A stretch of 44,726 nt of DNA from a virus (Duplodnaviria > Heunggongvirae > Uroviricota > Caudoviricetes): IMG/VR virus record IMGVR_UViG_2802429225_000004. One strand, 5' to 3'. Positions 1 through 44,726 of this stretch are shown here, one piece after another. Positions within the stretch are counted from its first letter, which is position 1, and every line of letters begins with the position of its first letter. The position numbers and the translations under genes are program-made. The notes beneath the pieces are model-generated. The model worked only from the letters and a program-made list of their open reading frames with translations. It did not search any database and was not told the origin of the DNA.

Positions 1-1131
1 TCAAATAACCAGTTTTTTCCACTCCTTACCGCGTGCGTCGTTGTAAATATCGGTCATTTTTTGATTCGAATGACCCAGCAAAATTTTGGTATCAATTCCC
101 TGTTCTCTGAACAATCTTTCTGATAAAGATCTTTGCTCATGGAAAGAGGGTGGAGTGCCATTAGCACGCCAGTTGTAATCCACAGAATCCCGGGCTTTTT
201 TAAATGCAACTGTTAACGTTGCTGGTTTAACCATCCCGCCGCGCTTACCCATCCCCTTAGCGTGATGATGGTGCAATAACCACGGACTAAGGATGTAATC
301 ACGACAGGATGACACCACGTCACCTAGGGTCAGATTTAATTTGTCGCAACGCAGAGCCAGAGGAATGGCTATCCGGGCTCCTGTTTTTTGCTGTTCGACA
401 TGAAGGTAACCATCCCGGATATCCGAAAACTGCATTTTGCAAATATCCGAAAGACGCTGGCCCGTCATCAGTGCCAGCAGCATGCCGCGCTGTAAAAAGT
501 AACCATCCTTTTCCGCTGCGTTATAAATCATCATCCACTCATCAAAAGTCAGTCGCTGTCTTGATATCCGCACTTGCGGTTTTTTTGCCGATTCAGCCGG
601 GTTAAAGCCTGGCGGGACATCACCCGTTTGTTGAGCCTCCCGGAAAACATCGATCAATACCTTCCTGAAAATTTGTCCCATTCTGTTATGTCCCTTTGCC
701 TTGTATTCTTCCAGCACCGATACCACATCTTTTACGGTTATGGCATCTAGCGGCCTGGCTCCAAAACGTTCATCAAACACCCTGAGAGGAGCCGCTTTTT
801 GTTTCAGCGTGCTGAGCTTGATTTCTCCGTTCTCATATCTTTCCTGTTGAATTTTTCTGTAATTATTCAGAAAAATGGAAACGGTTGATGCGCCGCCGGT
901 ATCACTAATAATTTTCTCCTGCAGACTGAGCATTTGCTCCATTTGTTGTCTGGCAAGACGGCTGTTCGCTTCTGCTGCAATGGTTTCCGCCAGTTTCTGG
1001 TCAATACTGCCGAGTCCATGATTTTTACCTGTGATGGGATGCCTGTAACGCCAGTAAACTTTGTTATTTCTTTTGTCAAAATACGGAGATAAACCCGGAA
1101 CATCGGTTTTATATTTTCGCGGGCGCGCCAT
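1..1131 (-). CDS. int: Phage integrase, tyrosine recombinase (lambda Int family); stop codon is the first codon of the window
   Basis: 376-aa ORF; C-terminal catalytic-domain motifs typical of tyrosine recombinases (HxxR...Y region, LLGHSNQKMTDIY); position at prophage end next to xis. Confidence 0.9.
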   Translation of the reverse strand: MARPRKYKTDVPGLSPYFDKRNNKVYWRYRHPITGKNHGLGSIDQKLAETIAAEANSRLARQQMEQMLSLQEKIISDTGGASTVSIFLNNYRKIQQERYENGEIKLSTLKQKAAPLRVFDERFGARPLDAITVKDVVSVLEEYKAKGHNRMGQIFRKVLIDVFREAQQTGDVPPGFNPAESAKKPQVRISRQRLTFDEWMMIYNAAEKDGYFLQRGMLLALMTGQRLSDICKMQFSDIRDGYLHVEQQKTGARIAIPLALRCDKLNLTLGDVVSSCRDYILSPWLLHHHHAKGMGKRGGMVKPATLTVAFKKARDSVDYNWRANGTPPSFHEQRSLSERLFREQGIDTKILLGHSNQKMTDIYNDARGKEWKKLVI

Positions 1132-1421: not shown

Positions 1422-3896
1422 TTAAAAATCAGCCTGATTCGGGATCAGTTTTTGCCAGATTGCTGAAACGTATTTCGCCTGGTGACGGGCATCATCCAGC
1501 GCATGGTGGCGCACGCCTTCAAATGGAATAACTGTTCTGGCATCGAAGTCGATAGTTTTTCCCAGTTCAACGATTGTACGTACATCGCGATCGTTGTAGT
1601 AACGCCACGGGCAGGGGATGTTCAGGCGTTCGTACGAGGTTCGTAAAATAGTGTTGTCGAAAGTTGCACCATTGCCCCATACCTGAACGAATTTTTCATT
1701 CGAGTACTCATTGATGAATTCCCGAAATTGAATAAGAGCGTCAACCAGTTTTACCTGATCAACTAAAATTGCAGATCTGGCTTCGCTGGACTGAGCAAGC
1801 CACCATTCGATGGTGGAACCATCAGGTACAGCACCCGTGTCCATAGCGTCAACCAGGCTGATAACGATATAAAATGTTGGCCCGATTTCCCCGGTCTGCG
1901 GATCGAAGAACACAGCACCAATAACCACGATGGGGGCATTACTTTTTTTACCCATCGTTTCAAGGTCGATCATCAGGTGGTACCACACTCTGCTGGTGGA
2001 TGTGCTTTTATGATGACCATTCACATTAATTAAGGGATCTGCCGCCTCACCAGTTTCACTATCGCTGGCGTGGTCCTGAGCGCCGCTAGTGTCCCCCTTG
2101 TGTGGATGTTCAGCGCCTTCCATTTCCTCCGGATCATTTTCCTGAACTTCAACCTGATTCTCTTCATCGAATGTTTCCTGATATGTTGCGTTGCCCATCA
2201 CCGCGCCACAATCAGGGCAGTTGCCGCCACCGCTCTGACCGCAGGCGGTGCAGGTTTTTTCTGGTTCTTGTTGCGCTACTGGTTCGGATTGTTTCGTTTC
2301 TGGCTCGTTTTGTAACGCATTTTGGCTGTTTTGTTCCGCTTTCTGGTCGTTCTGTTCCGTTTCTTGCTGGTTCTGGTACACAGAATCGCGGGTTTCAATC
2401 CCCTTCACCCATTTCGGATCATTCGGGTCGCTAATCCCTGCAACAAATTCTCCGCGAGAGGCAGCAAGCAACTGATTGGCGTCAGGCTGGCTGACTGCCT
2501 GCATAATTTTGTTTACTTCGTCAGCGGTAACTTTTACCGGCTCTGGTTGTGCGGTCGTGTCAGATGCACCAGTATTTTGTTGTGAACCTGAGTATGTGCC
2601 GTTTTTGCGGGCAAAATATTCTTCTTTCGTGATTTCAGTAGCCCCGGCAGCCAGCGCCTTATTCAGACCAGAAAGTTTGTTTGCACGACCATATTTTTCG
2701 CCATCCTTATCGGTGAAGAGGAAGTAGAACGGCCCCTCACGCTCTACAGATGGTTCAGTTTCCAGCGCGCTTTCATTTTTTTTGGTATCAGATACTTCAG
2801 TTTCCACTGCATCAGTTTGTGCTGCTGACGGCTGGAGAATATCAGCAGTGTTCTGGTCTGTTTCTTCATCCTCAAACACGCCCTTTGTCGCCAGGTATTC
2901 AGTGATGTATTTGTTCAGTGCCACGGGATCCTTGTGAATGTCGATCGGACGCTCACGGACAAGGCCAAAAATAGTCTGACGGTCATAGCGAATGGCATCA
3001 GGCTGTTTGCGCATTGATGCGGAAATACGCTTCCAGTCTTCGCGATCGCTCTCGATAACTTCATTTTTTGCCCAGCGATGGATGCTGCCGTCAATGTTTC
3101 CGGCATCAATGTCACCAGGCCACAGAGCGTAGGCCAGTTCATCATCCAATGTTTTCCATGTCTGCTTGTATTCGCGACGAATAACTGCAGTGACAGGGGG
3201 GATTTTTTCTGCTGAGTTTTCAGTGTGCTGTCGGTTGACTCTGGTGCGGGCGAGATCAACAACAGACGTGTATTTTCCAGTCTCTTTGCGCTCCGCGTCC
3301 TGCCGTTTTTTCCAGTTACGTAATTCAGCCTGAATTTCGGGCCATTTGGCACCCGGCTTACATTTGTGTTTACCCCATCCGATAGCGAACAGTTTGCGTT
3401 CCGGATACATAGCGTTAATTTCTGGTGTTTTCATCAGTGCTTCAACGATATGCCCGTCGAATGTCGCCACGTCTTCCTGCAGTAACTCCTGTGCGCTAAT
3501 CACCATATCAACGGTGATGTTTTCACATGTACCGAACTTAACCAGGACCGCGTTCTGTACTTCAAGGGACAGCTTGTCAAAATTGACGTTCATCGGATCG
3601 GATTCTGGTTCGACCGGAATAAAGGAAGCGGATTCCTCATCCCAGCGGTTTTCCTGCATATATTCGGTATCCCAGGAGTCGATAGCAGGGCGGGGCATGC
3701 CGGGTTTATCCTCGCAGACAAGAAATTTATAAGCGCAGTCCTGAGCAGCCGGATATTGCTCCAGGAATTGCCAGGTAAATTTGGCACGGGCGCGGCGTTC
3801 GTCACCGGCTTCAATGGCAGTGGCTACAGCAACTGCACCTTCTTCCTTTATTGCCTGTTCGTCCGGAATGGCGGCGCAAATAAAGACTTTACTCAT
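1422..3896 (-). CDS. Large prophage exonuclease with C-terminal DnaQ-like DEDDh 3'-5' exonuclease domain (family often annotated exodeoxyribonuclease VIII in enterobacterial prophages)
   Basis: 824-aa ORF; C-terminal motifs MIDLETMG, WGNGATFDN, HHALDDA match DEDDh exonuclease Exo I/II/III; long acidic Q/E-rich low-complexity middle region with CxxC...CxxC zinc-ribbon-like motif. Confidence 0.75.
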   Translation of the reverse strand: MSKVFICAAIPDEQAIKEEGAVAVATAIEAGDERRARAKFTWQFLEQYPAAQDCAYKFLVCEDKPGMPRPAIDSWDTEYMQENRWDEESASFIPVEPESDPMNVNFDKLSLEVQNAVLVKFGTCENITVDMVISAQELLQEDVATFDGHIVEALMKTPEINAMYPERKLFAIGWGKHKCKPGAKWPEIQAELRNWKKRQDAERKETGKYTSVVDLARTRVNRQHTENSAEKIPPVTAVIRREYKQTWKTLDDELAYALWPGDIDAGNIDGSIHRWAKNEVIESDREDWKRISASMRKQPDAIRYDRQTIFGLVRERPIDIHKDPVALNKYITEYLATKGVFEDEETDQNTADILQPSAAQTDAVETEVSDTKKNESALETEPSVEREGPFYFLFTDKDGEKYGRANKLSGLNKALAAGATEITKEEYFARKNGTYSGSQQNTGASDTTAQPEPVKVTADEVNKIMQAVSQPDANQLLAASRGEFVAGISDPNDPKWVKGIETRDSVYQNQQETEQNDQKAEQNSQNALQNEPETKQSEPVAQQEPEKTCTACGQSGGGNCPDCGAVMGNATYQETFDEENQVEVQENDPEEMEGAEHPHKGDTSGAQDHASDSETGEAADPLINVNGHHKSTSTSRVWYHLMIDLETMGKKSNAPIVVIGAVFFDPQTGEIGPTFYIVISLVDAMDTGAVPDGSTIEWWLAQSSEARSAILVDQVKLVDALIQFREFINEYSNEKFVQVWGNGATFDNTILRTSYERLNIPCPWRYYNDRDVRTIVELGKTIDFDARTVIPFEGVRHHALDDARHQAKYVSAIWQKLIPNQADF

Positions 3897-11665: not shown

Positions 11666-11949
11666 GATGGCTTTTGTGGACAAAGACGGCATCGAAGTAG
11701 AGAGCTCAACTCACTGGATGCCGCTACCGGAACCACCGCAGGAGGTGAATCAATGACCTGGCCTGAGGCATTCACCACGGTAGGAATTGCACTGGCGGTG
11801 GCGCTGGTGGTGTATTCGATTTGCCGCTGGGGATAAAAACGATTTGCGGGAAAAGGATAGTTAAGTAGAATGGCTGCGGGTGCTTGAGGCTATCTGTCTC
11901 AGGCATGAACACCAACGGCAGATAGAGAAAAGCCCCAGTTAACATTACG

Positions 11950-12020
11950 CGTCCTGCAAGACGCTTAACATTAATCTGAGGCCATATCTATGACTTGCAC
12001 ACGTAGGTTAGCCTCTTACG
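11950..12020 (-). ncRNA. Putative Sok-type antisense RNA region of the hok locus
   Basis: Inferred from the canonical hok/mok/sok organisation only; boundaries not resolvable from sequence. Confidence 0.25.
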
Positions 12021-12046
12021 TGCCGAAAGGCAAGGAGAAGCAGGCT

Positions 12047-12202
12047 ATGAAGCAGCAAAAGGCGATGTTAATCGCCCTGATCGTCATCTGTTTAACCGTC
12101 ATAGTGACGGCACTGGTAACGAGGAAAGACCTCTGCGAGGTACGAATCCGAACCGGCCAGACGGAGGTCGCTGTCTTCACAGCTTACGAACCTGAGGAGT
12201 AA
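12047..12202 (+). CDS. hok: Hok-family type I toxin (HokD/RelF-like); overlapping mok frame begins at 11990
   Basis: 51-aa product MKQQKAMLIALIVICLTVIVTALVTRKDLCEVRIRTGQTEVAVFTAYEPEE is a hallmark Hok sequence; upstream overlapping reading frame as in mok. Confidence 0.85.
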   Translation: MKQQKAMLIALIVICLTVIVTALVTRKDLCEVRIRTGQTEVAVFTAYEPEE

Positions 12203-16379: not shown

Positions 16380-16455
<76 letters not shown>

Positions 16456-16458
16456 TAT

Positions 16459-16533
<75 letters not shown>

Positions 16534-37695: not shown

Positions 37696-38249
37696 TGACA
37701 GAGACGTTTCGCTCACTTCTGCCGCCTTCCGCTGTCAGGCCGGAGCGGTCACAGGAGCAGGCCACAACAGAAAGTATCCTGACGCTTGATGCGGATATGG
37801 TCAGAAAGGTGAAAAATCCGGATACCTGTCCGTTGCATCTGTTGCCGTGGCTGGCATGGGAGTTTGCTGTGGATTTCTGGCAGGACGACTGGAGCGAAGA
37901 GCAGAAGCGGCAGATTTTACGTGATGCGGCATATGTGCATCAGCACCGGGGGACGGCGGGGGCAGTGTTGCGGGCGCTCAGTGCGGTTGGTGTTCCGGCA
38001 GCAATCAAAGAGTGGTGGCAGGATTCACCGCGCAAAAAACCGTACACTTTTCGTGTGGAGCTGTTTTTGCGGGAAGGGGCTGACAGTGTGCTTTACAGTC
38101 GGGTCAGGACGCTGGTCATTAAGGCCAAGAATTTACGCAGCGGTCTGAGCACCATTGACGTAAATACGAATATCGGAAAGGACAGCCAGTTTTATGTTGG
38201 TGGCGCGGTGACCGCGCATATTGATGTGGTGATTGAGGCGGGAGAATAA
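37695..38249 (+). CDS. Baseplate/tail protein gpI-like
   Basis: ATG overlaps J stop (TGATG); about 184 aa. Confidence 0.7.
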   Translation: MTETFRSLLPPSAVRPERSQEQATTESILTLDADMVRKVKNPDTCPLHLLPWLAWEFAVDFWQDDWSEEQKRQILRDAAYVHQHRGTAGAVLRALSAVGVPAAIKEWWQDSPRKKPYTFRVELFLREGADSVLYSRVRTLVIKAKNLRSGLSTIDVNTNIGKDSQFYVGGAVTAHIDVVIEAGE

Positions 38250-38250
38250 C

Positions 38251-39528
38251 GTGACCACGAAACATTGCAGTATTCTGACAAACAGGGGAAAGGCGCTGGA
38301 GGCCGCGTCTGCGGCGGGTGGTGCGCCGGTGGTACTGGACGGGTTTGTGGTGGGAGACGGAAACGGAAATGCTGTCACGCCAGAGGCAGGGCAGACGGCT
38401 CTGGTCAGGGAAGTTTATCGCGGCACCATATCACGTCTGGCGGTCTCGCCTGAGCAGGAAAACCAGTTTATTGCGTATCTAGTGCTGCCGGAGGGCGTGG
38501 GGGGATTTACGGTCAGGGAAGCGGGGCTGCTGACCAGTGATGGTGAGCTTTATGCCGTCGGAAGTTGTGCTGCCATTGAGAAACCGAAAAATGGTGTGAC
38601 AGCCACACTGCAGTTCCGGCTGGCAGTGGCTGAAAGTGCGCAGGTCACACTGAATGTGGCAACCGGAGATGGTCTGTTTCTGCGACAGGACAGGAATCTT
38701 TCGGATGTGGAAGACAGGGATGAGGCTGTCGAAAACCTCGGATTAAAACCCACGGTGGACAAGGCAAAAAATGCCGTTCAGCGTGATGGTGACACCATGA
38801 GTGGTGATTTGACGTTTGAAAATGACTCAATCCTTGCGTGGATTCGAAATACAGATTGGGCAAAGATTGGGTTTAAAAATGATTCGGATTCAGACACCGA
38901 TTCATATCTGTGGTTTGAAGCGGGGGATAATGGAAACGAATATTTCAAGTGGCGGAGTAAGTCTGGAACCACAACCAAAGACCTGATGAATCTCAAATGG
39001 GATGCGCTGTATGTTCTGGTGAATGCCATCATCAATGGTGAGGTTGTATCAAAATCAGCAAACGGCTTTCGTATTGCTTATGGTAATTACGGTTTTTTTG
39101 TCAGAAACGACGGGTCGAACACATATTTTATGTTGACCAATGCTGGCGACAGCATGGGGAGCTATAACGGACTAAGGCCATTCTGTATAAATAATGCCAC
39201 TGGCGCAGTCACGATGGGCAACGGGCTGACTGTCAGCGGGGGGGTAAACGTTTCCAGCGGAAATATCACCGCCGGAGGAGGTCAGGTTATACCGGGTAAT
39301 TACAGCAATTTTGATGCCCGTTATAAGACCAAATCAGAAGGTGTGCAGGACGTGCGCCTTGGCGGTTATCAACAGATGGGCAGTACAGGCTCAAACCTGG
39401 CTCCCTCTGGTTATGTCAGTGTGGGTGGCTACTGCTACGGAGACTGGGATAACTCTGCCGACGGGTGGTTTATCCGACCGCTTCAGAAACTGATTAACGG
39501 AACCTGGTATAACGTCGCGAGTATGTAA
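38251..39528 (+). CDS. Tail fibre protein (P2 gpH-like N-terminal domain, divergent AT-rich C-terminal part)
   Basis: N-terminus resembles P2 H (GDGNGNAVTPEAGQTALVREVYRG...VGGFTVREAGLL..DGELYAV); GTG start after gpI stop. Confidence 0.75.
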   Translation: MTTKHCSILTNRGKALEAASAAGGAPVVLDGFVVGDGNGNAVTPEAGQTALVREVYRGTISRLAVSPEQENQFIAYLVLPEGVGGFTVREAGLLTSDGELYAVGSCAAIEKPKNGVTATLQFRLAVAESAQVTLNVATGDGLFLRQDRNLSDVEDRDEAVENLGLKPTVDKAKNAVQRDGDTMSGDLTFENDSILAWIRNTDWAKIGFKNDSDSDTDSYLWFEAGDNGNEYFKWRSKSGTTTKDLMNLKWDALYVLVNAIINGEVVSKSANGFRIAYGNYGFFVRNDGSNTYFMLTNAGDSMGSYNGLRPFCINNATGAVTMGNGLTVSGGVNVSSGNITAGGGQVIPGNYSNFDARYKTKSEGVQDVRLGGYQQMGSTGSNLAPSGYVSVGGYCYGDWDNSADGWFIRPLQKLINGTWYNVASM

Positions 39529-39530
39529 TT

Positions 39531-40076
39531 ATGTTGCATTTAAAAAATATTACGTCGGGCAATCCGAAAACAGCCGAACAATACGAACTGACCAAAAGGT
39601 ATGGCGTCGAGTGGTTGTATACAGAATCCGGTGAAAACTGGTATGAAATCCAGAAAAATTTTTCACCTGACACATTAAAAGTTGAATATCTGGATACAGG
39701 GAAAGTTACCTGGGTTGGAAAAGATGCTGCGTCAATTAATCCCAGAAACCGGAGCGTGATTGAAATTACCGATAACACAGCGAACCGACAAATTGATGCC
39801 TCAGGTTACTGGTTTTACCGGGATGACAAATTCATATTTGACTACGGTAAAAAGGCAGAAGATGAGCGGGTGAGTAAGCTCAAGGATGTAAGTCGGTTAA
39901 CTGCTGAATGGGAAAAAGACCTGCTGCTGGGGTTAATCAGCGACGAAGACAAAGAAAAGCTGAAAGCCTGGCGGATGTACGCGAAATCGCTGCAGGCGCT
40001 GGATTTCAGCACTATCACCGATAAAACCTCATACAGAGCCATTGAATGGCCTGTCTCTCCGGAAGCCTCTTCCTGA
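39531..40076 (+). CDS. Tail fibre assembly chaperone (gpG/U-like)
   Basis: 181 aa, AT-rich, immediately downstream of fibre gene. Confidence 0.6.
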   Translation: MLHLKNITSGNPKTAEQYELTKRYGVEWLYTESGENWYEIQKNFSPDTLKVEYLDTGKVTWVGKDAASINPRNRSVIEITDNTANRQIDASGYWFYRDDKFIFDYGKKAEDERVSKLKDVSRLTAEWEKDLLLGLISDEDKEKLKAWRMYAKSLQALDFSTITDKTSYRAIEWPVSPEASS

Positions 40077-40099
40077 TTTAATTAATCGCGAGAAAAACT

Positions 40100-42055
40100 A
40101 TGTCTGTAGTGATATCAGGTGCGCTGATAGATGGCGCAGGCATCCCCATGTCCGGATGCCACATAATTCTGAAATCCCGGGTAAACACCTCAGAGGTGGT
40201 GATGCGCACAGTTGCCGACGTGGTGACAGGAAACTGTGGCGAGTACTGTTTTAAGGCGCAGACCGGAAAATATTGCGTATATCTGAAACAGGACTGGCGC
40301 GACGAGTACTGTGTTGGCGATATTGCTGTATACGATGACTCAAAGCCTGGCACGTTGAACGATTTTCTGACCGCCCTTGATGAAGGCGACCTCAAACCCG
40401 ATGTGGTGAAACGCTTTGAGGAAATGGTGGCGCAGGCGCAGCAGAGCGCGGAAGTGGCAGCGGAAAGCGAACAACAGGCCGGGCAACATGTCGCTGATGC
40501 GCAGAAGATTAAGAGCGACTGCCAGACGCTGGCGGATAACGTACAGCAGAATGCAGAAGCCGTTGCCGAAGATAAAAAGCAGGTGGCACAGCTGGCATCA
40601 TCTGCCACACAGGATGCGGCCCGCGCAGAGCAGGCCGTTAAGGACGCAGACAAAATCGTCGATAAGGCTGTTGATAAACTCGGTGAAGCCGCAACGCTGA
40701 CCGGCGAGGCAAAGGCCAGCGCAGAAGCGGCAGCAAAAAGCGAGCAGAATGCGAAACAGCACAGGGACGAGGCGCAACGGATAGTTGATGACCTGAAGGG
40801 AGGCAATGCTTCCACGACAGAAAAAGGCCTGGTGCAACTCTGTAGTGATACAGACAACGACAGCGAAGAACTGGCAGCCACGCCAAAAGCCGTCAAAACC
40901 GTCATGGACGAGACGAAAACAAAAGCGCCACTGGACAGCCCGGCGTTCACAGGTACGCCAACCACACCAACCCCGCCGGACGATGCGACCGGGCTGGAGA
41001 TGGCGAACGCGGCATTTGTCCGCAAACTGCTCGCCGCGCTGGTTGACTCGTCCCCGGAAGCCCTGGACACACTGAACGAGCTGGCAGCGGCGCTGGGCAA
41101 CGACCCTAATTTTGCGACGACTGTCACTAAGGCGCTGGCGGGTAAACAGCCGCTTAATGACGTGTTAACGGCGGTCAGCCAGATAACACCGGAAGAAAAC
41201 ACGCTGCCTTATTTCAGTGCAGAGGGCCGGATTTTACTGGCGCAGCTGTCAGAAAAAGCCCGCGCATTACTGGCACTGGACACGCCTGAAGCCATGCGCA
41301 CGGAGCTTGAACTGAAAGCGGCTGCGACGATGGAGCCCCAGAGCGATATCCGCGACCGCACACCAGGCAGACTGGCACTGTCCGGCATGTACGGATTCGG
41401 TCAGGCATTTGCCAGCACCGACGCTCTGGCGTTTGACGGACAGGCCGATTTTGCTGAATGGCTGAAAGAGGCCACCCCGGGGCGTTATGCGGTCAGTATT
41501 GCGGACTCTTCCACACTACTGGCAGGCACCACAAAATTTAACGGCATCATTGATGTGATGTGGTCGCCTTTTGATAACGATGAATCGGACACAACGCGTA
41601 AATTCAAAATGCTGCTGTGTTTTAACCAGTATTACGAAGGTGAGCACAGTATTCATCGTCTGACTTACCGCTGGAGTGGAAACAACTGGAATGCAACAGT
41701 AAGCCCTGTCATTTACGACGGCGATTCGCTGGCGTTCTTACTGTCCCGGACAGCAGGCTCAGGCTCATATTTCAAATACCCGGCAGTGGGTGTTCCGGTG
41801 CTTGCTGTTTATCGCGGAACAACTTCCGGGGATAAAGAAATCAAAATTGGCCTGGGTGATGTGGTGCCAGGGTCACAACTGGGCGGAGTTAATCTTTCGT
41901 GCACAATATCTTCTGCGGGGGCTGGCTCCTACGGTTCCACACCGAGTGCAGGAGCTACAGGGTACACTTTTCCGGGGCGTTATATGGCGTTATCCGGGGT
42001 CAGGGACTCTTACGGAACAAGCGGTCGTATCTGCCTGTTTGTGCGCATCGAGTAA
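40100..42055 (+). CDS. Side tail fibre protein (lambda Stf-like)
   Basis: N-terminus MSVVISGALIDGAGIPMSGCHIILKSRVNTSEVV... parallels lambda Stf; internal conserved motif KGLVQL...ELAATPKAVKTVMDE; Ala/Gln-rich coiled region. Confidence 0.75.
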   Translation: MSVVISGALIDGAGIPMSGCHIILKSRVNTSEVVMRTVADVVTGNCGEYCFKAQTGKYCVYLKQDWRDEYCVGDIAVYDDSKPGTLNDFLTALDEGDLKPDVVKRFEEMVAQAQQSAEVAAESEQQAGQHVADAQKIKSDCQTLADNVQQNAEAVAEDKKQVAQLASSATQDAARAEQAVKDADKIVDKAVDKLGEAATLTGEAKASAEAAAKSEQNAKQHRDEAQRIVDDLKGGNASTTEKGLVQLCSDTDNDSEELAATPKAVKTVMDETKTKAPLDSPAFTGTPTTPTPPDDATGLEMANAAFVRKLLAALVDSSPEALDTLNELAAALGNDPNFATTVTKALAGKQPLNDVLTAVSQITPEENTLPYFSAEGRILLAQLSEKARALLALDTPEAMRTELELKAAATMEPQSDIRDRTPGRLALSGMYGFGQAFASTDALAFDGQADFAEWLKEATPGRYAVSIADSSTLLAGTTKFNGIIDVMWSPFDNDESDTTRKFKMLLCFNQYYEGEHSIHRLTYRWSGNNWNATVSPVIYDGDSLAFLLSRTAGSGSYFKYPAVGVPVLAVYRGTTSGDKEIKIGLGDVVPGSQLGGVNLSCTISSAGAGSYGSTPSAGATGYTFPGRYMALSGVRDSYGTSGRICLFVRIE

Positions 42056-42068
42056 CGGGGAATAAAAC

Positions 42069-42647
42069 ATGAAAATCAGAGCAGTAAAGGGCATCAGAAA
42101 CGCCCATTATCTCGAAAATGGTGCGGTTGACTGCGAGGTGTTATTTGAAGGTGAAACGGAATTCGTCCCGTATACCGCCATGCAGGACGATAGCGCCCCG
42201 ACAGGCCAGCGCATCTGGGAAGAGTTACAGAGCGGCAAGTGGGGGAAAATCGCCCCATTCACCGTCACGCCTGAACTTATCGCAGCGGCAAAAGATGCCA
42301 AACGCCAGGAAATCGAAGCCTGGCGCACAGAACAGGAGGCGCAGCCGTTCACGTTCGAATGGAACGGTCGCACCTGGAATGCTGGCCCAGACTCACTGGC
42401 CCGTCTCTATCCGGTGGTAATGGCTGCAAAATCTGATACGGCACGAACCGCCCTTGCGTGGGGCGACGCTGATAATCAACAGGTGAAACTGTCGATGCAG
42501 GAACTTGAAGAACTGGCGGCAGCACTGGCGCAGGCGCAGGTCAATCGCAACGACGAGATTTATCGTCGGCAGCGGGAGATGAAAGAAGAACTGAATAACT
42601 TGGATGATTTGCGCTCAATTAGAGCGATTGCAATTAGCAGTAATTAG
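42069..42647 (+). CDS. Tail fibre assembly protein (Tfa)
   Basis: 192 aa; characteristic Tfa pattern (WNGRTWNAGPDSLARL...ELNNLDDLRSIRAI). Confidence 0.8.
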   Translation: MKIRAVKGIRNAHYLENGAVDCEVLFEGETEFVPYTAMQDDSAPTGQRIWEELQSGKWGKIAPFTVTPELIAAAKDAKRQEIEAWRTEQEAQPFTFEWNGRTWNAGPDSLARLYPVVMAAKSDTARTALAWGDADNQQVKLSMQELEELAAALAQAQVNRNDEIYRRQREMKEELNNLDDLRSIRAIAISSN

Positions 42648-42686
42648 CTCAGAAAATGCAAATAACAAGTTGTCATATCATAGAGT

Positions 42687-42714
42687 AGTGAGGGGGCGCC
42701 CCTCACTATTTATT
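42687..42714 (+). terminator. Hairpin terminator between convergent tfa and cargo genes
   Basis: 9-bp stem AGTGAGGGG-GCG-CCCCTCACT followed by ATTTATT. Confidence 0.5.
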
Positions 42715-43258
42715 ACCACCAGCTATCAGCTTTACTCTCTCGTGCTTTTCCCTCACTTTGCAACAATTCTTTGGTACCAGTTGAAATATTACGCCGAGCA
42801 TCCGCTTCTGATTGAATAACGTCAGTTTGTGCAGCCCGCTCCTTGAGTTCTTGGTCCAGAAAATCGTTTGCTCTATTTACCCTGGCCCTTTTAGCTTCGA
42901 GTTCGAGTTTTCGGTTTTCTAGCTCAAGTTGGCGTAATTGATCTTCATAATCTTGATCGCGTTTTTTATCTGCCGCCATCTCCGCTTCGAGCTTAGCTTT
43001 ACGCTCAAACTCAGCCGCTCGTCGTTGTTTTTCTTTTGCTGCTGCCATAGCCGCTGCTTTCTCTTTGCGAATCCTTTCCGCATTGGCACGTTGGCGCTCT
43101 TGTTCTTTACGTGCATCTTCAATACGTTTTTCTTCGGCTTTACCTTCATTTTCGGCTCGCGCAATAGCCGCTAATTGTTCCTGTAAAGAAGACGCGTTAA
43201 CGTAAAAAGTGCTTAGGCACGGCAAAGCTAATAGTATATATAAAGCAAGACGTGTCAT
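42713..43258 (-). CDS. Secreted/periplasmic coiled-coil protein (TolA-like K/E/A/R-rich), unknown function
   Basis: 181 aa; N-terminal signal-peptide-like segment MTRLALYILLALPCLSTFYVNA then charged heptad-like repeats; 12 nt downstream of SlyB-like gene. Confidence 0.5.
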   Translation of the reverse strand: MTRLALYILLALPCLSTFYVNASSLQEQLAAIARAENEGKAEEKRIEDARKEQERQRANAERIRKEKAAAMAAAKEKQRRAAEFERKAKLEAEMAADKKRDQDYEDQLRQLELENRKLELEAKRARVNRANDFLDQELKERAAQTDVIQSEADARRNISTGTKELLQSEGKARESKADSWW

Positions 43259-43270
43259 CTGAAATGGCCA

Positions 43271-43783
43271 TTATTTATTATCAGGGCATGTTGCATTTGG
43301 TTGAATACGTGTTTCGTTTTCTTTAGTTGAAATCATGGCTGCTAATCCAGGTGCAAATTGGCAAGCTCTACCAACTTGAGTCGATGTATAAACTTTTGTA
43401 CCTTCTTTGTATGTTAGAGAAACGCCTTCAACAATTGTTTTATCTTTGACTAATGAACCAGCGGCTGCACCAAGTGCGGTTCCACCTACAGCCCCTGCGG
43501 TGGTTGCCAGTTTCGAACCACTTTTGGTGTTATGTCCAATTACTCCTCCAGCAACGGCACCAACTACAGCACCGAATGTTTGTGCTGCTTCTTTATTTTC
43601 TTTGTTGTCCACAGCAATTTTTGCAGGAAGAACCGAAATGATAGTTATCATTTTGGTTTCTTGTTTGGAATTAACCTGAGTGGTGTCATAAACATCTGCA
43701 GCAAGATGTTCTGCAGTAGACTGACACCCACTTAATGCAAAGACAGCTAATAAAGAAATGGTTGCTTTATTTAATTTCAACAT
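43271..43783 (-). CDS. SlyB-like outer-membrane lipoprotein (glycine-zipper domain)
   Basis: Lipobox LSGC; glycine zipper GAVVGAVAGGVIG...AGAVGGTALGAAAG; overall pattern resembles remembered E. coli SlyB; AGGAGAG RBS. Confidence 0.6.
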   Translation of the reverse strand: MLKLNKATISLLAVFALSGCQSTAEHLAADVYDTTQVNSKQETKMITIISVLPAKIAVDNKENKEAAQTFGAVVGAVAGGVIGHNTKSGSKLATTAGAVGGTALGAAAGSLVKDKTIVEGVSLTYKEGTKVYTSTQVGRACQFAPGLAAMISTKENETRIQPNATCPDNK

Positions 43784-44048
43784 TTTACTTGCTCTCCTAG
43801 TTTCTGAGAAACTGCAAATATATTTACCTGAGCTTTTGTGTCAATATTTTTGGGGTTGTTTTGTTGTCTTTAATCAAAAAAAGTATCCTGCTCATATAGT
43901 TATGTTTAGTGTTTTTATGTTTTTTAATAAATTTCATAAATAGCTGAATTTATTGATATCAATATATAAACTTATCGTGCATACATTGCCCAAAATACAG
44001 TTTCAGAAGGGGGCTGGTTGTTGTTGGGGGCAATGTTATCAGTGGGAA

Positions 44049-44126
44049 ATGCAGGATGAACTGAATAATCTGGATGATTTAAGCTCAATCAGAGAGATGA
44101 CGATTAGCGGCAATCACGCTCGATAA
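44049..44126 (+). pseudogene. Remnant/duplicate of tail-fibre-assembly gene 3' end
   Basis: 25-codon ORF MQDELNNLDDLSSIREMTISGNHAR; about 80 percent nucleotide identity to the last 55 nt of the tfa gene at 42590-42647. Confidence 0.5.
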
Positions 44127-44132
44127 AATTAA

Positions 44133-44155
44133 CCCCGGTGATCATCCGGGGTTTT
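44133..44155. terminator. Bidirectional hairpin terminator
   Basis: CCCCGG-TGATCAT-CCGGGG followed by TTTT on plus strand; lies between tfa remnant and convergent antirepressor-like gene. Confidence 0.5.
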
Positions 44156-44162
44156 GCATTCA

Positions 44163-44726
44163 TTAAAACCGCATCAACCGTTCCACCAGTTGTTCTTTAC
44201 GGGCAACGATCCAGCCGTGTTGCTCCAGATAAAATTTAAACCGCTCCAGAGTGCATACCATCGCATCGGCGGGGACTTTTTCCGTGAACTCGACCTGACC
44301 GTGTTTATCGAAGTGGATCAGTAATGCGAATCCATCATTTTTGGTGGCGGAGTTTTGTGCTGCTGGTGGTTGTTTTTGGCTGAAATAACAGTCTTCGAGT
44401 TTTTCGAACACTTCCCACGCCTGATCGGTTTCGAGCATTTTTGCGTGGCGAGCTGCCCCGCGTTCTGTCCATAGGATGAGGGAGCGGGCTTTGGGAGATA
44501 TGGGGTTTTGTGACTTACTTAAAGTAAGTCGCAAATTTTTTAATTCTTCACCCGATGCTTTAAAAAAGTGCTTTCCTTCGACAAAACGCTCTTTGTTTCT
44601 GGTGAAGTTAACCTGGATATTCAGAATTTCGGTGCCATAAAGCTGCGCCAAAAGTTCGGTGGTAATAACAGGGATCTGGTTATGGGTGATCGGGGAGAGA
44701 GTTTCAACAGAGATTTGAGTGGCCAT
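44163..44726 (-). CDS. Phage antirepressor-like protein (ORF6N/KilA-N-type N-terminal domain)
   Basis: 187-aa ORF starting exactly at window end; N-terminal pattern resembling ORF6N/KilA-N DNA-binding domains; assignment tentative. Confidence 0.45.
   Translation of the reverse strand: MATQISVETLSPITHNQIPVITTELLAQLYGTEILNIQVNFTRNKERFVEGKHFFKASGEELKNLRLTLSKSQNPISPKARSLILWTERGAARHAKMLETDQAWEVFEKLEDCYFSQKQPPAAQNSATKNDGFALLIHFDKHGQVEFTEKVPADAMVCTLERFKFYLEQHGWIVARKEQLVERLMRF

Follow-up and report, generated by a model that had tools for sequence, protein, structure and literature searches.

How two genes of bacterial envelope type came to lie between two versions of the same tail-fibre gene end, and what they contribute there, is the question raised by the right end of IMGVR_UViG_2802429225_000004, an IMG/VR virus record of 44,726 nucleotides (nt) of Caudoviricetes DNA, the whole of which is called the window here. 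The two genes are carried on the minus strand of an insert at 42648 to 44039, referred to below as the cassette. From sequence comparison, the cassette was identified as a moron, a predicted two-gene transcription unit and a phage-borne paralogue of the Escherichia coli operon yfgH-yfgI. It is absent between genes that are adjacent in relatives, it has its own predicted promoter and terminator, and it deviates in G+C content (GC). A moron inserted by recombination at the 3' end of a tail-fibre assembly gene, tfa, had been put forward in the original prediction, which was made from the letters of the window alone, and these three properties support it.

The insert and its flanking gene ends

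The cassette comprises 1,392 nt with a GC of 40.3%, compared with 53.6% for the late region and 53.5% for the gene on its left, a member of the DUF4376 family. As had been described for this AT-rich segment, its two minus-strand open reading frames (ORFs), at 42713 to 43258 and 43271 to 43783, are intact. The right end of the inserted block is formed by the upstream, putatively regulatory region of the two genes (43784 to 44039), which is particularly AT-rich (GC, 30.5%). On either side lies a direct repeat of 75 nt. Positions 42570 to 42644 and 44040 to 44114, at a spacing of 1470 nt, agreed at 59/75 positions (79% identity), whereas the best ungapped 75-mer in 200 shuffles of 42701 to 44726 averaged 32 matches and reached 38 at most. 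The alignment of the two gene ends, on which the proposed duplication depended, is therefore far above chance. The longest exact runs common to both copies are about 11 nt, and no third copy was found within the window.

By the repeat search with its shuffle control, the left copy (42570 to 42644, plus strand) was assigned to the resident DUF4376 gene as its true 3' end. The right copy (44040 to 44126, plus strand) is a remnant of a different DUF4376 allele, consisting of the last 28 codons and the stop. This allele is of the type found in strain RM9088, ending in ...ELNNLDDLSSIREMTISGNHAR and a stop codon. The right copy had been placed at 44049 to 44126; the copy itself stood, but its start was slightly short, as BLAST homology to an intact allele starts at 44040 and perhaps at about 44029. 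A 57-amino-acid (aa) ORF at 43953 to 44126 was considered as a gene and rejected, since its TTG start lies inside the AT-rich promoter region and only the stub of the gene end is conserved.

The gene to which the left copy belongs (42069 to 42647, plus strand) is intact and encodes a tail-fibre accessory protein of 192 aa. It had been named tfa, and this identity did not hold: the product matched PF14301 (DUF4376; E 6e-17) and phrog_1141, "tail fiber protein" (E 2e-89), and the Pfam search returned DUF4376 only, with no match to Caudo_TAP (PF02413), the Tfa family. Alleles of the DUF4376 family agree over about 90 aa at the N terminus and in a RQREMKEELNNLDDLRSIR island at the C terminus but diverge in between.

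Each repeat copy is followed by a hairpin, as anticipated. The first (42683 to 42708), between the convergent DUF4376 gene and the downstream gene of the cassette, is GC rich, with a 13-bp stem followed by TATTTATT. Its folding energy on the plus strand was -24.7 kcal/mol (z, -3.9), with 0/200 shuffles folding equally well, and it forms on the minus strand too; it is thus predicted to be a bidirectional terminator. The second (44131 to 44153) has the form AACCCCGG-N7-CCGGGGTT, with an 8-bp stem and T-runs on both strands. The same hairpin occupies the same place in RM9088 and in SC407, and from its sequence it is predicted to be the native bidirectional terminator common to the ancestral DUF4376 gene and the convergent gene on its right, which encodes an ORF6N-domain protein. 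Rfam and tRNA scans of 42000 to 44726 gave no matches.

The insertion proposal had pointed to prophages lacking the insert, and such a junction was found in the ompW-site prophage of RM9088. There, an intact 195-aa DUF4376 gene, ending ...REMAISGNHAR and a stop codon, is followed by the terminator and the ORF6N gene, with no cargo. Window positions 44040 to 44726 were colinear with this uninterrupted junction (L002 4544 to 5230) at 97.1% identity. Matches read from a spread sample of the 1,292 matching E. coli records gave the same picture: in many genomes the match from window position 44053 lies under an intact DUF4376 gene followed by ORF6N or an Rha regulator gene. An intact DUF4376 gene over the right-copy sequence is present in hundreds of E. 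coli genomes, and the empty sites carry many different DUF4376 alleles. From RM9088 and the other intact junctions, the right copy is read as what a displaced DUF4376 allele left behind, its 3' end together with the native terminator. In SC407 (L003 3734 to 4436), the slot is filled by unrelated cargo, two plus-strand genes whose products of 89 and 142 aa received no Pfam or PHROG assignment; the DUF4376/ORF6N slot therefore appears to be a hot spot for variable cargo. The 142-aa product has a C-terminal hydrophobic segment.

The cassette itself was found at an ompW-type slot in 1 of 5,426 complete E. coli genomes, that of strain 52F4, with the same arrangement as in the window and 98.9% identity over the cassette. 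In 52F4 the ORF6N gene is followed by a truncated ompW, yciE, yciF, and trpA, which places the right attachment site (attR) beyond the cassette, and in RM9088 and SC407 the ORF6N gene likewise separates the slot from the truncated ompW/yciE host flank. The possibility that the two genes are host genes outside the prophage was rejected on these grounds, and also because the cassette is present at three chromosomal prophage sites (ompW, yecD, and the pphA side). The placement of the cassette inside the prophage, as originally assumed, is thus upheld.

The two products and their expression

The upstream gene (43271 to 43783, minus strand) encodes a predicted 170-aa outer-membrane (OM) lipoprotein of the SlyB/YfgH glycine-zipper 2TM family. 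As read from the sequence, it carries the lipobox LSGC with Gln at position +2 (...VFALSG/CQST), the Cys being invariant in 41 homologues. A lipobox Cys followed by a residue other than Asp would serve as an OM sorting signal. The protein matched PF05433 over residues 71 to 109 (26.9 bits; cutoff, 24.2) and phrog_1277 over its full length (E 8e-91), with 68% identity to YfgH of E. coli K-12 and 71% to Upf50.5 of phage P7; the NCBIfam search returned glycine-zipper models below threshold only. Similarity to SlyB extended over nearly the whole protein (phmmer against 7ojf, E 2e-9, residues 12 to 162 against 10 to 154), and in a Foldseek search of the Protein Data Bank (PDB) with the predicted model, 7ojf_A was the sole match below 1e-3 (E 1.5e-8; TM score, 0.68). 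A SlyB-like lipoprotein had been predicted, correctly at the level of both sequence and fold, and the assignment can now be sharpened to a yfgH-yfgI paralogue. Membership in the TraT family (PF05818) was considered and rejected, as the score (25.2 bits; E 2e-5) was below the cutoff of 31, the match covered profile positions 55 to 156 of 214 only, and no TraT structure was among the Foldseek PDB matches. PHROG 1277 and RefSeq phage records (P7 upf50.5 in NC_050152) label this SlyB/YfgH-type lipoprotein "DNA methyltransferase," which is a propagated misannotation.

The downstream gene (42713 to 43258, minus strand) encodes a predicted secreted, all-helical DUF5384 protein of 181 aa. By eye, it has a cleavable-looking signal peptide ending ...FYVNA/SS. 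It matched PF17358 (DUF5384) with 145.2 bits (cutoff, 25) and phrog_1094 over its full length (E 1e-76), and it is 48% identical to K-12 YfgI and 71% identical to P7 Upf50.0. AlphaFold 2 (AF2) modelled it as one continuous helix from residue 2 to residue 180, with a predicted local distance difference test (pLDDT) value of 86.5, in agreement with the proposed signal-peptide-bearing coiled-coil partner. A sequence search of the PDB returned low-complexity or coiled-coil noise only. The association of the two families is a constant one, with a yfgH-type lipoprotein gene directly upstream of a DUF5384 gene in the window, in K-12, in P7, and in Salmonella and E. coli prophages. In a neighbour-joining tree of YfgI-type proteins, the window copy, the other prophage copies, and P7 fell into one clade, from which the chromosomal YfgI clade of E. 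coli, Citrobacter, and Kluyvera and a Xenorhabdus clade stood apart. The nearest chromosomal relatives (65 to 67% identity) lie between hslJ and ydbK on GC-rich enterobacterial contigs; among species-representative genomes, no copy exceeded 58%.

A promoter-like site of the sigma-70 type, TTGACA-16 nt-TATATT (43817 to 43844, minus strand; 11/12 matches), lies approximately 34 nt upstream of the yfgH-like ATG. Its hexamers and 16-nt spacing are kept in a yecD-site E. coli prophage (L007) and in a Salmonella prophage (L016), with different spacer sequences. Both genes had been credited with their own ribosome-binding site; this was borne out for the yfgH-like gene, in which AGGAG 10 nt before the ATG at 43783 provides a clear Shine-Dalgarno sequence, but not for the yfgI-like gene, which is separated from the yfgH-like stop by 12 nt (43259 to 43270) with no obvious Shine-Dalgarno sequence. 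Translation of the two genes is therefore probably coupled, and, judged by their arrangement, they make up an operon like the one in K-12. No lineage has a disrupted copy of either ORF, and in every comparison between prophage copies where dS could be estimated, the ratio of nonsynonymous to synonymous substitution rates (dN/dS) was 0.03 to 0.11 for the yfgI-like gene and 0.06 to 0.10 for the yfgH-like gene. Such ratios indicate that the mobile YfgH/YfgI clade is under strong purifying selection.

Other copies, history, and prophage setting

Other contexts of the cassette were found by exact-protein look-ups. In E. coli prophages at the yecD/aspS site, it follows the 192-aa DUF4376 allele also present in the window and is the final piece of cargo. 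One group of these (L007 to L014) is 96 to 99% identical to the window over 42400 to 43700; for L007, identity is 81 to 82% through the promoter region to about 44011, after which the sequences diverge. In this group, too, the cassette precedes a DUF4376 3' stub, which belongs to another allele (...REMKEELSSLEDLRTVRNFTLE and a stop codon) and starts at the same codon. The neighbouring fibre gene is only 65 to 90% identical between the window and the yecD-site prophages, and set against the 96 to 99% of the cassette, this suggests a recent import. The commonest form at the yecD site (L062 to L067; 245 index blocks) carries a 92% variant of the lipoprotein and abuts the attR arm without a stub. 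Against this variant, the proportion of synonymous differences (pS) was 0.07 for the yfgI-like gene (L063) and 0.34 for the yfgH-like gene (L062), and the promoter region of the yfgH-like gene was likewise more diverged (L062/L063). Sequence comparison indicates that a recombination breakpoint exists inside the cassette.

A fourth E. coli context is contig DBLSXF010000004 (L015), near pphA. Over L015 4835 to 5300, attR-arm-like sequence containing TTGGGACA repeats comes after the cassette and is itself followed by a 95-codon DUF4376 pseudogene with an in-frame stop; an arm with TTGGGACA repeats is also present at the yecD-site attR in L007 and L062. On this contig, a prophage with the cassette appears to lie against what is left of the right end of an older prophage. 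Among deposited phage genomes, the yfgH/yfgI-like pair was found only in P7/P1-like phages, and in IMG/VR only three contigs held a window-type cassette. Two apparent additions to these were rejected. In phage TL-2011b (L006; NC_019445, 41360 to 42935), the two proteins do not differ from K-12 YfgH/YfgI and their genes have yfgG as a neighbour, and in approximately 60 IMG/VR contigs (L089 to L147) with matches of 47 to 48%, yfgI lies ~540 nt from the contig end. These copies are host flanks of prophages integrated beside guaA/yfgI. Two kinds of annotation error are therefore flagged here, the "DNA methyltransferase" label and the host yfgGHI genes inside some "phage" records.

The history proposed for the locus turns on the last ~90 nt of the DUF4376 genes, a conserved island amid divergent alleles that would have provided the crossover site. 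A founding event would have truncated a DUF4376 gene, once, and the resulting mobile block would consist of a DUF4376 3' half, the hairpin, the yfgI-like and yfgH-like genes, the promoter region, and a short DUF4376 3' stub. From the commoner yecD-site E. coli prophages, this block would have entered an ompW-type prophage by homologous recombination, with the left crossover in the fibre/DUF4376 region and the right crossover inside the 3' end of the recipient DUF4376 gene. The recipient's own 3' end and terminator would then have been left as the "copy" at 44040 to 44153. With tfa-like sequence on both sides, the block could spread by homologous exchange, which would make the cassette portable between phages with related fibre modules, and its excision would be possible in principle. 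Two points weigh against parts of this history. The direction of the event, a gain, is inferred by parsimony, and repeat recombination in a cassette-bearing ancestor would also yield an "empty" site; and although a single founding truncation is likely from the stubs, those of the window and of L007 cannot be aligned over their 5' parts without indels.

The empty sites might instead be secondary, the cassette being ancestral at the DUF4376/ORF6N junction and repeatedly lost through the direct repeats, which would permit precise excision. This would alter the history of the element, not its nature. Salmonella prophages with the tail architecture of the window (baseplate J/I, fibre, Caudo_TAP, phage_tail_N fibre, and DUF4376) do carry the cassette in the same slot, in the order DUF4376-cassette-ORF6N, and its divergence from the window copy (77% nt identity) resembles that of the flanking genes (68 to 81%). 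However, a DUF4376 stub is absent from the Salmonella locus, where the terminator differs too, and the brevity of the exact runs shared by the repeats speaks against repeated excision. Empty sites in hundreds of genomes, with many DUF4376 alleles, against a single cassette among the complete E. coli genomes point the same way, as does the recent import suggested by the fibre gene comparison. Repeated loss was accordingly considered very improbable. Read as a gain, the locus is a clean natural example of moron movement, with crossover at a conserved DUF4376 end and a displaced gene end as the footprint; it can be compared with sites that are empty, sites with other cargo, and donor sites.

The window as a whole is essentially one complete prophage, with a lambda-type integrase gene at its left end (1 to 1131, minus strand), lambda-like terminase and head genes, and a contractile tail with a P2-type baseplate. 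Its fibre region consists of a first set at 38233 to 40076 (Phage_tail_fib and Caudo_TAP), in which 39531 to 40076 is the true Caudo_TAP gene of the phage, and a second set at 40100 to 42647, made up of a phage_tail_N fibre gene (40100 to 42055) and the DUF4376 gene. Two consecutive fibre/accessory sets in the same layout as at 38233 to 42647 were also observed in Salmonella prophages (L016 to L019); E. coli 52F4 and the yecD-site prophages have the second set only, directly after gpD. On the right flank of the slot, the ORF6N-domain, anti-repressor-like gene (44163 to 44726, minus strand) ends the window and is prophage DNA outside the cassette (PF10543, E 1e-21; phrog_2379, "anti-repressor"). 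Its C-terminal third (44163 to 44379) has ~93% nt identity to genes that hundreds of E. coli genomes carry under the annotation "Rha family transcriptional regulator." The ORF6N gene is therefore a domain mosaic. Weak matches of its product to the PADLOC candidate system PDC-S05 (E 4e-8) were also seen. Elsewhere in the window, a sok antitoxin RNA of a hok/sok module (109 bits) was detected at 11878 to 12052, tandem tRNA-Thr(TGT) and tRNA-Gly(TCC) genes at 16380 to 16533, and, at 1422 to 3896, an early-region gene whose 824-aa product has an Rv2179c-like 3'-5' exoribonuclease domain at its C terminus.

Proposed function and known counterparts

From family membership, the cassette is most readily interpreted, with a probability of roughly 0.6, as a lysogenic-conversion module that would add an OM-stabilising or -remodelling lipoprotein of the SlyB/YfgH type together with its partner. 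The consensus-like sigma-70 promoter of the cassette would drive its transcription without dependence on the late operon, and the lysogen would make an extra OM lipoprotein and a secreted, long-helix YfgI-type protein. By analogy with SlyB and YfgH, the lipoprotein may oligomerise via its glycine-zipper hairpin around OM proteins or lipid patches, and the OM would be stabilised or remodelled as an envelope trait of the lysogen. YfgH has been reported to stabilise the OM under SDS/EDTA (sodium dodecyl sulfate/ethylenediaminetetraacetic acid) and biogenesis stress, to co-purify with BamA, LptD, and OmpA/C/F, to be modelled as SlyB-like rings, and, when overexpressed, to protect cells with compromised OM biogenesis (2025 preprint, bioRxiv 10.64898/2025.12.22.696046). 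For the partner, nalidixic-acid sensitivity of a yfgI mutant has been described (PMC3536626), and the yfgHI orthologues of Salmonella Typhi, srgIL, form one SdiA-regulated operon (PMC11619404).

Several observations weigh against the proposed envelope function. The promoter and the terminators of the cassette are consensus matches only. The AF2 monomer of the lipoprotein reached a pLDDT of 61, with the helical hairpin below 50, and the yfgI-like protein, at 48% identity to E. coli YfgI and in a distinct phage clade, makes the transfer of function uncertain. The P7 record tags upf50.5 and upf50.0 "unknown protein function," and a literature search on these two genes or on DUF5384 found no paper.

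A different selected function for the same element, of the same genetic origin, would be receptor masking. SlyB/YfgH-like rings with their YfgI-like partner would sequester or occlude OM protein receptors and so keep the same phage or others from adsorbing or from getting their DNA into the cell. Precedents exist in the lipoproteins Cor and Llp, which act on FhuA, and in TraT, which acts on OmpA-dependent processes, and a gene for an exclusion lipoprotein next to a receptor-binding gene is a familiar arrangement (T5 llp, phi80/N15 cor). The position of the cassette fits this pattern, directly after the receptor-binding module (phage_tail_N fibre and DUF4376) in at least four prophage backgrounds and travelling with the DUF4376 3' half. 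The pair in P7/P1-like phages, however, adjoins tail-tube and immunity genes rather than fibre genes, and alleles of the same DUF4376 type are also seen beside unrelated cargo (SC407) or no cargo, which indicates that cargo and fibre are not strictly coupled. The similarity to the surface-exclusion lipoprotein TraT was weak but consistent (25 bits), remaining under the Pfam cutoff, and neither cassette protein had a match in PADLOC-DB v2 at E ≤ 0.1. In the 7ojf structure, SlyB forms a ring around BamA, and the reported co-purification partners of YfgH include OmpA/C/F as well as BamA and LptD (bioRxiv 10.64898/2025.12.22.696046); yet the chromosomal homologues are housekeeping stress proteins in 5,420 of the 5,426 E. 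coli genomes and evidently present no general block to phages. No paper was found on SlyB, prophages, and superinfection exclusion together. On balance, receptor masking is considered unlikely.

Service in the lytic cycle would have the cassette stabilise the OM until spanin action, or affect lysis timing or vesicle release after induction. The cassette does lie at the end of the late/tail region, in P7 the pair directly precedes, on the same strand, the late promoter LPsit and the tail-tube genes, and the protective effect of YfgH overexpression under compromised OM biogenesis is also compatible with such a role (bioRxiv 10.64898/2025.12.22.696046). In the window, though, the cassette runs opposite to the late operon, with its own predicted sigma-70-type promoter and with hairpins insulating both sides, and most relatives of the prophage are without it, so that it appears dispensable for the lytic cycle. 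A lytic function is accordingly judged more doubtful still than receptor masking. Going beyond the lysogenic-conversion module favoured above, it may tentatively be suggested that temperate phages captured a nanodomain-forming SlyB/YfgH lipoprotein and its partner as a mobile surface-modification module linked to receptor-binding genes, whose rings would cage OM proteins and for which the duplicated DUF4376 end would act as the homology arm. This broader idea is held to be improbable. If true, receptors would be hidden, in a new class of superinfection exclusion, or the OM of the lysogen would be hardened against bile, serum, and detergents, and the module would hop between fibre modules via the duplicated, conserved DUF4376 end. 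Given the recent description of YfgH as an OM stabiliser, the phage yfgHI copies are cheap, testable candidates for envelope-robustness lysogenic conversion or phage exclusion, and the little-studied YfgH/YfgI pair is found to have a distinct mobile clade, with members in phage-plasmids of the P7/P1-like type and in a number of prophages of E. coli and Salmonella.

Among phage morons, the closest precedents in kind are lambda bor and lom and phi80/N15 cor, lambdoid morons for OM proteins or lipoproteins made by the prophage, which are small autonomous units of deviant GC in or after the tail-fibre region. Compared with these, the cargo of the window differs in being a two-gene operon taken from an envelope-stress system of bacteria, and the duplicated gene end on its flanks records the route of recombination.

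The chromosomal counterpart is the core operon yfgH-yfgI (b2505-b2506) next to guaA, which a sensitive DNA search matched at 60 to 80% identity in 5,420 of the 5,426 complete E. coli genomes. The cassette and the K-12 operon have the same two families in the same order, with similar gaps (12 nt in the window, 15 nt in K-12) and protein lengths (170/181 aa and 172/179 aa, respectively), and they share the lipobox, the glycine zipper, two conserved C-terminal cysteines, and the DUF5384 core. In contrast, the cassette lies in a prophage and not at the yfgG-guaA locus, its GC is 40% against 47 to 49% for the chromosomal genes, and the promoter regions of the cassette and of yfgH show no relationship. 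Orthology to yfgHI by vertical descent was rejected on account of the prophage location and of identities of 68%/48% at the protein level and ~70% at the nt level; practically all E. coli genomes (5420/5426) have their own chromosomal yfgHI copy as well.

The nearest phage counterparts are upf50.5/upf50.0 of P7 and the corresponding pair in the P1-like phage-plasmids RCS47, SJ46, JL22, and phi456. These belong to the same clade (~71% identity in protein, 68% in nt) and are also of low GC (42 to 44%); unlike the cassette, they lie between the tail-tube operon and immI (c4/icd/ant) and have no flanking repeat of a tfa end. The cargo family is thus already catalogued, in P7, in PHROGs 1277 and 1094, and in the PGAP annotation of 52F4. 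At the structural level, the lipoprotein resembles SlyB (7ojf/7ojg) in its PF05433 domain, in full-length homology, and, as modelled, in a beta domain with an inserted glycine-zipper helical hairpin. The two are only 27% identical, however, and the YfgH subfamily is always accompanied by a downstream DUF5384 partner gene that slyB lacks; genetically distinct roles have been reported for YfgH and SlyB (bioRxiv 10.64898/2025.12.22.696046).

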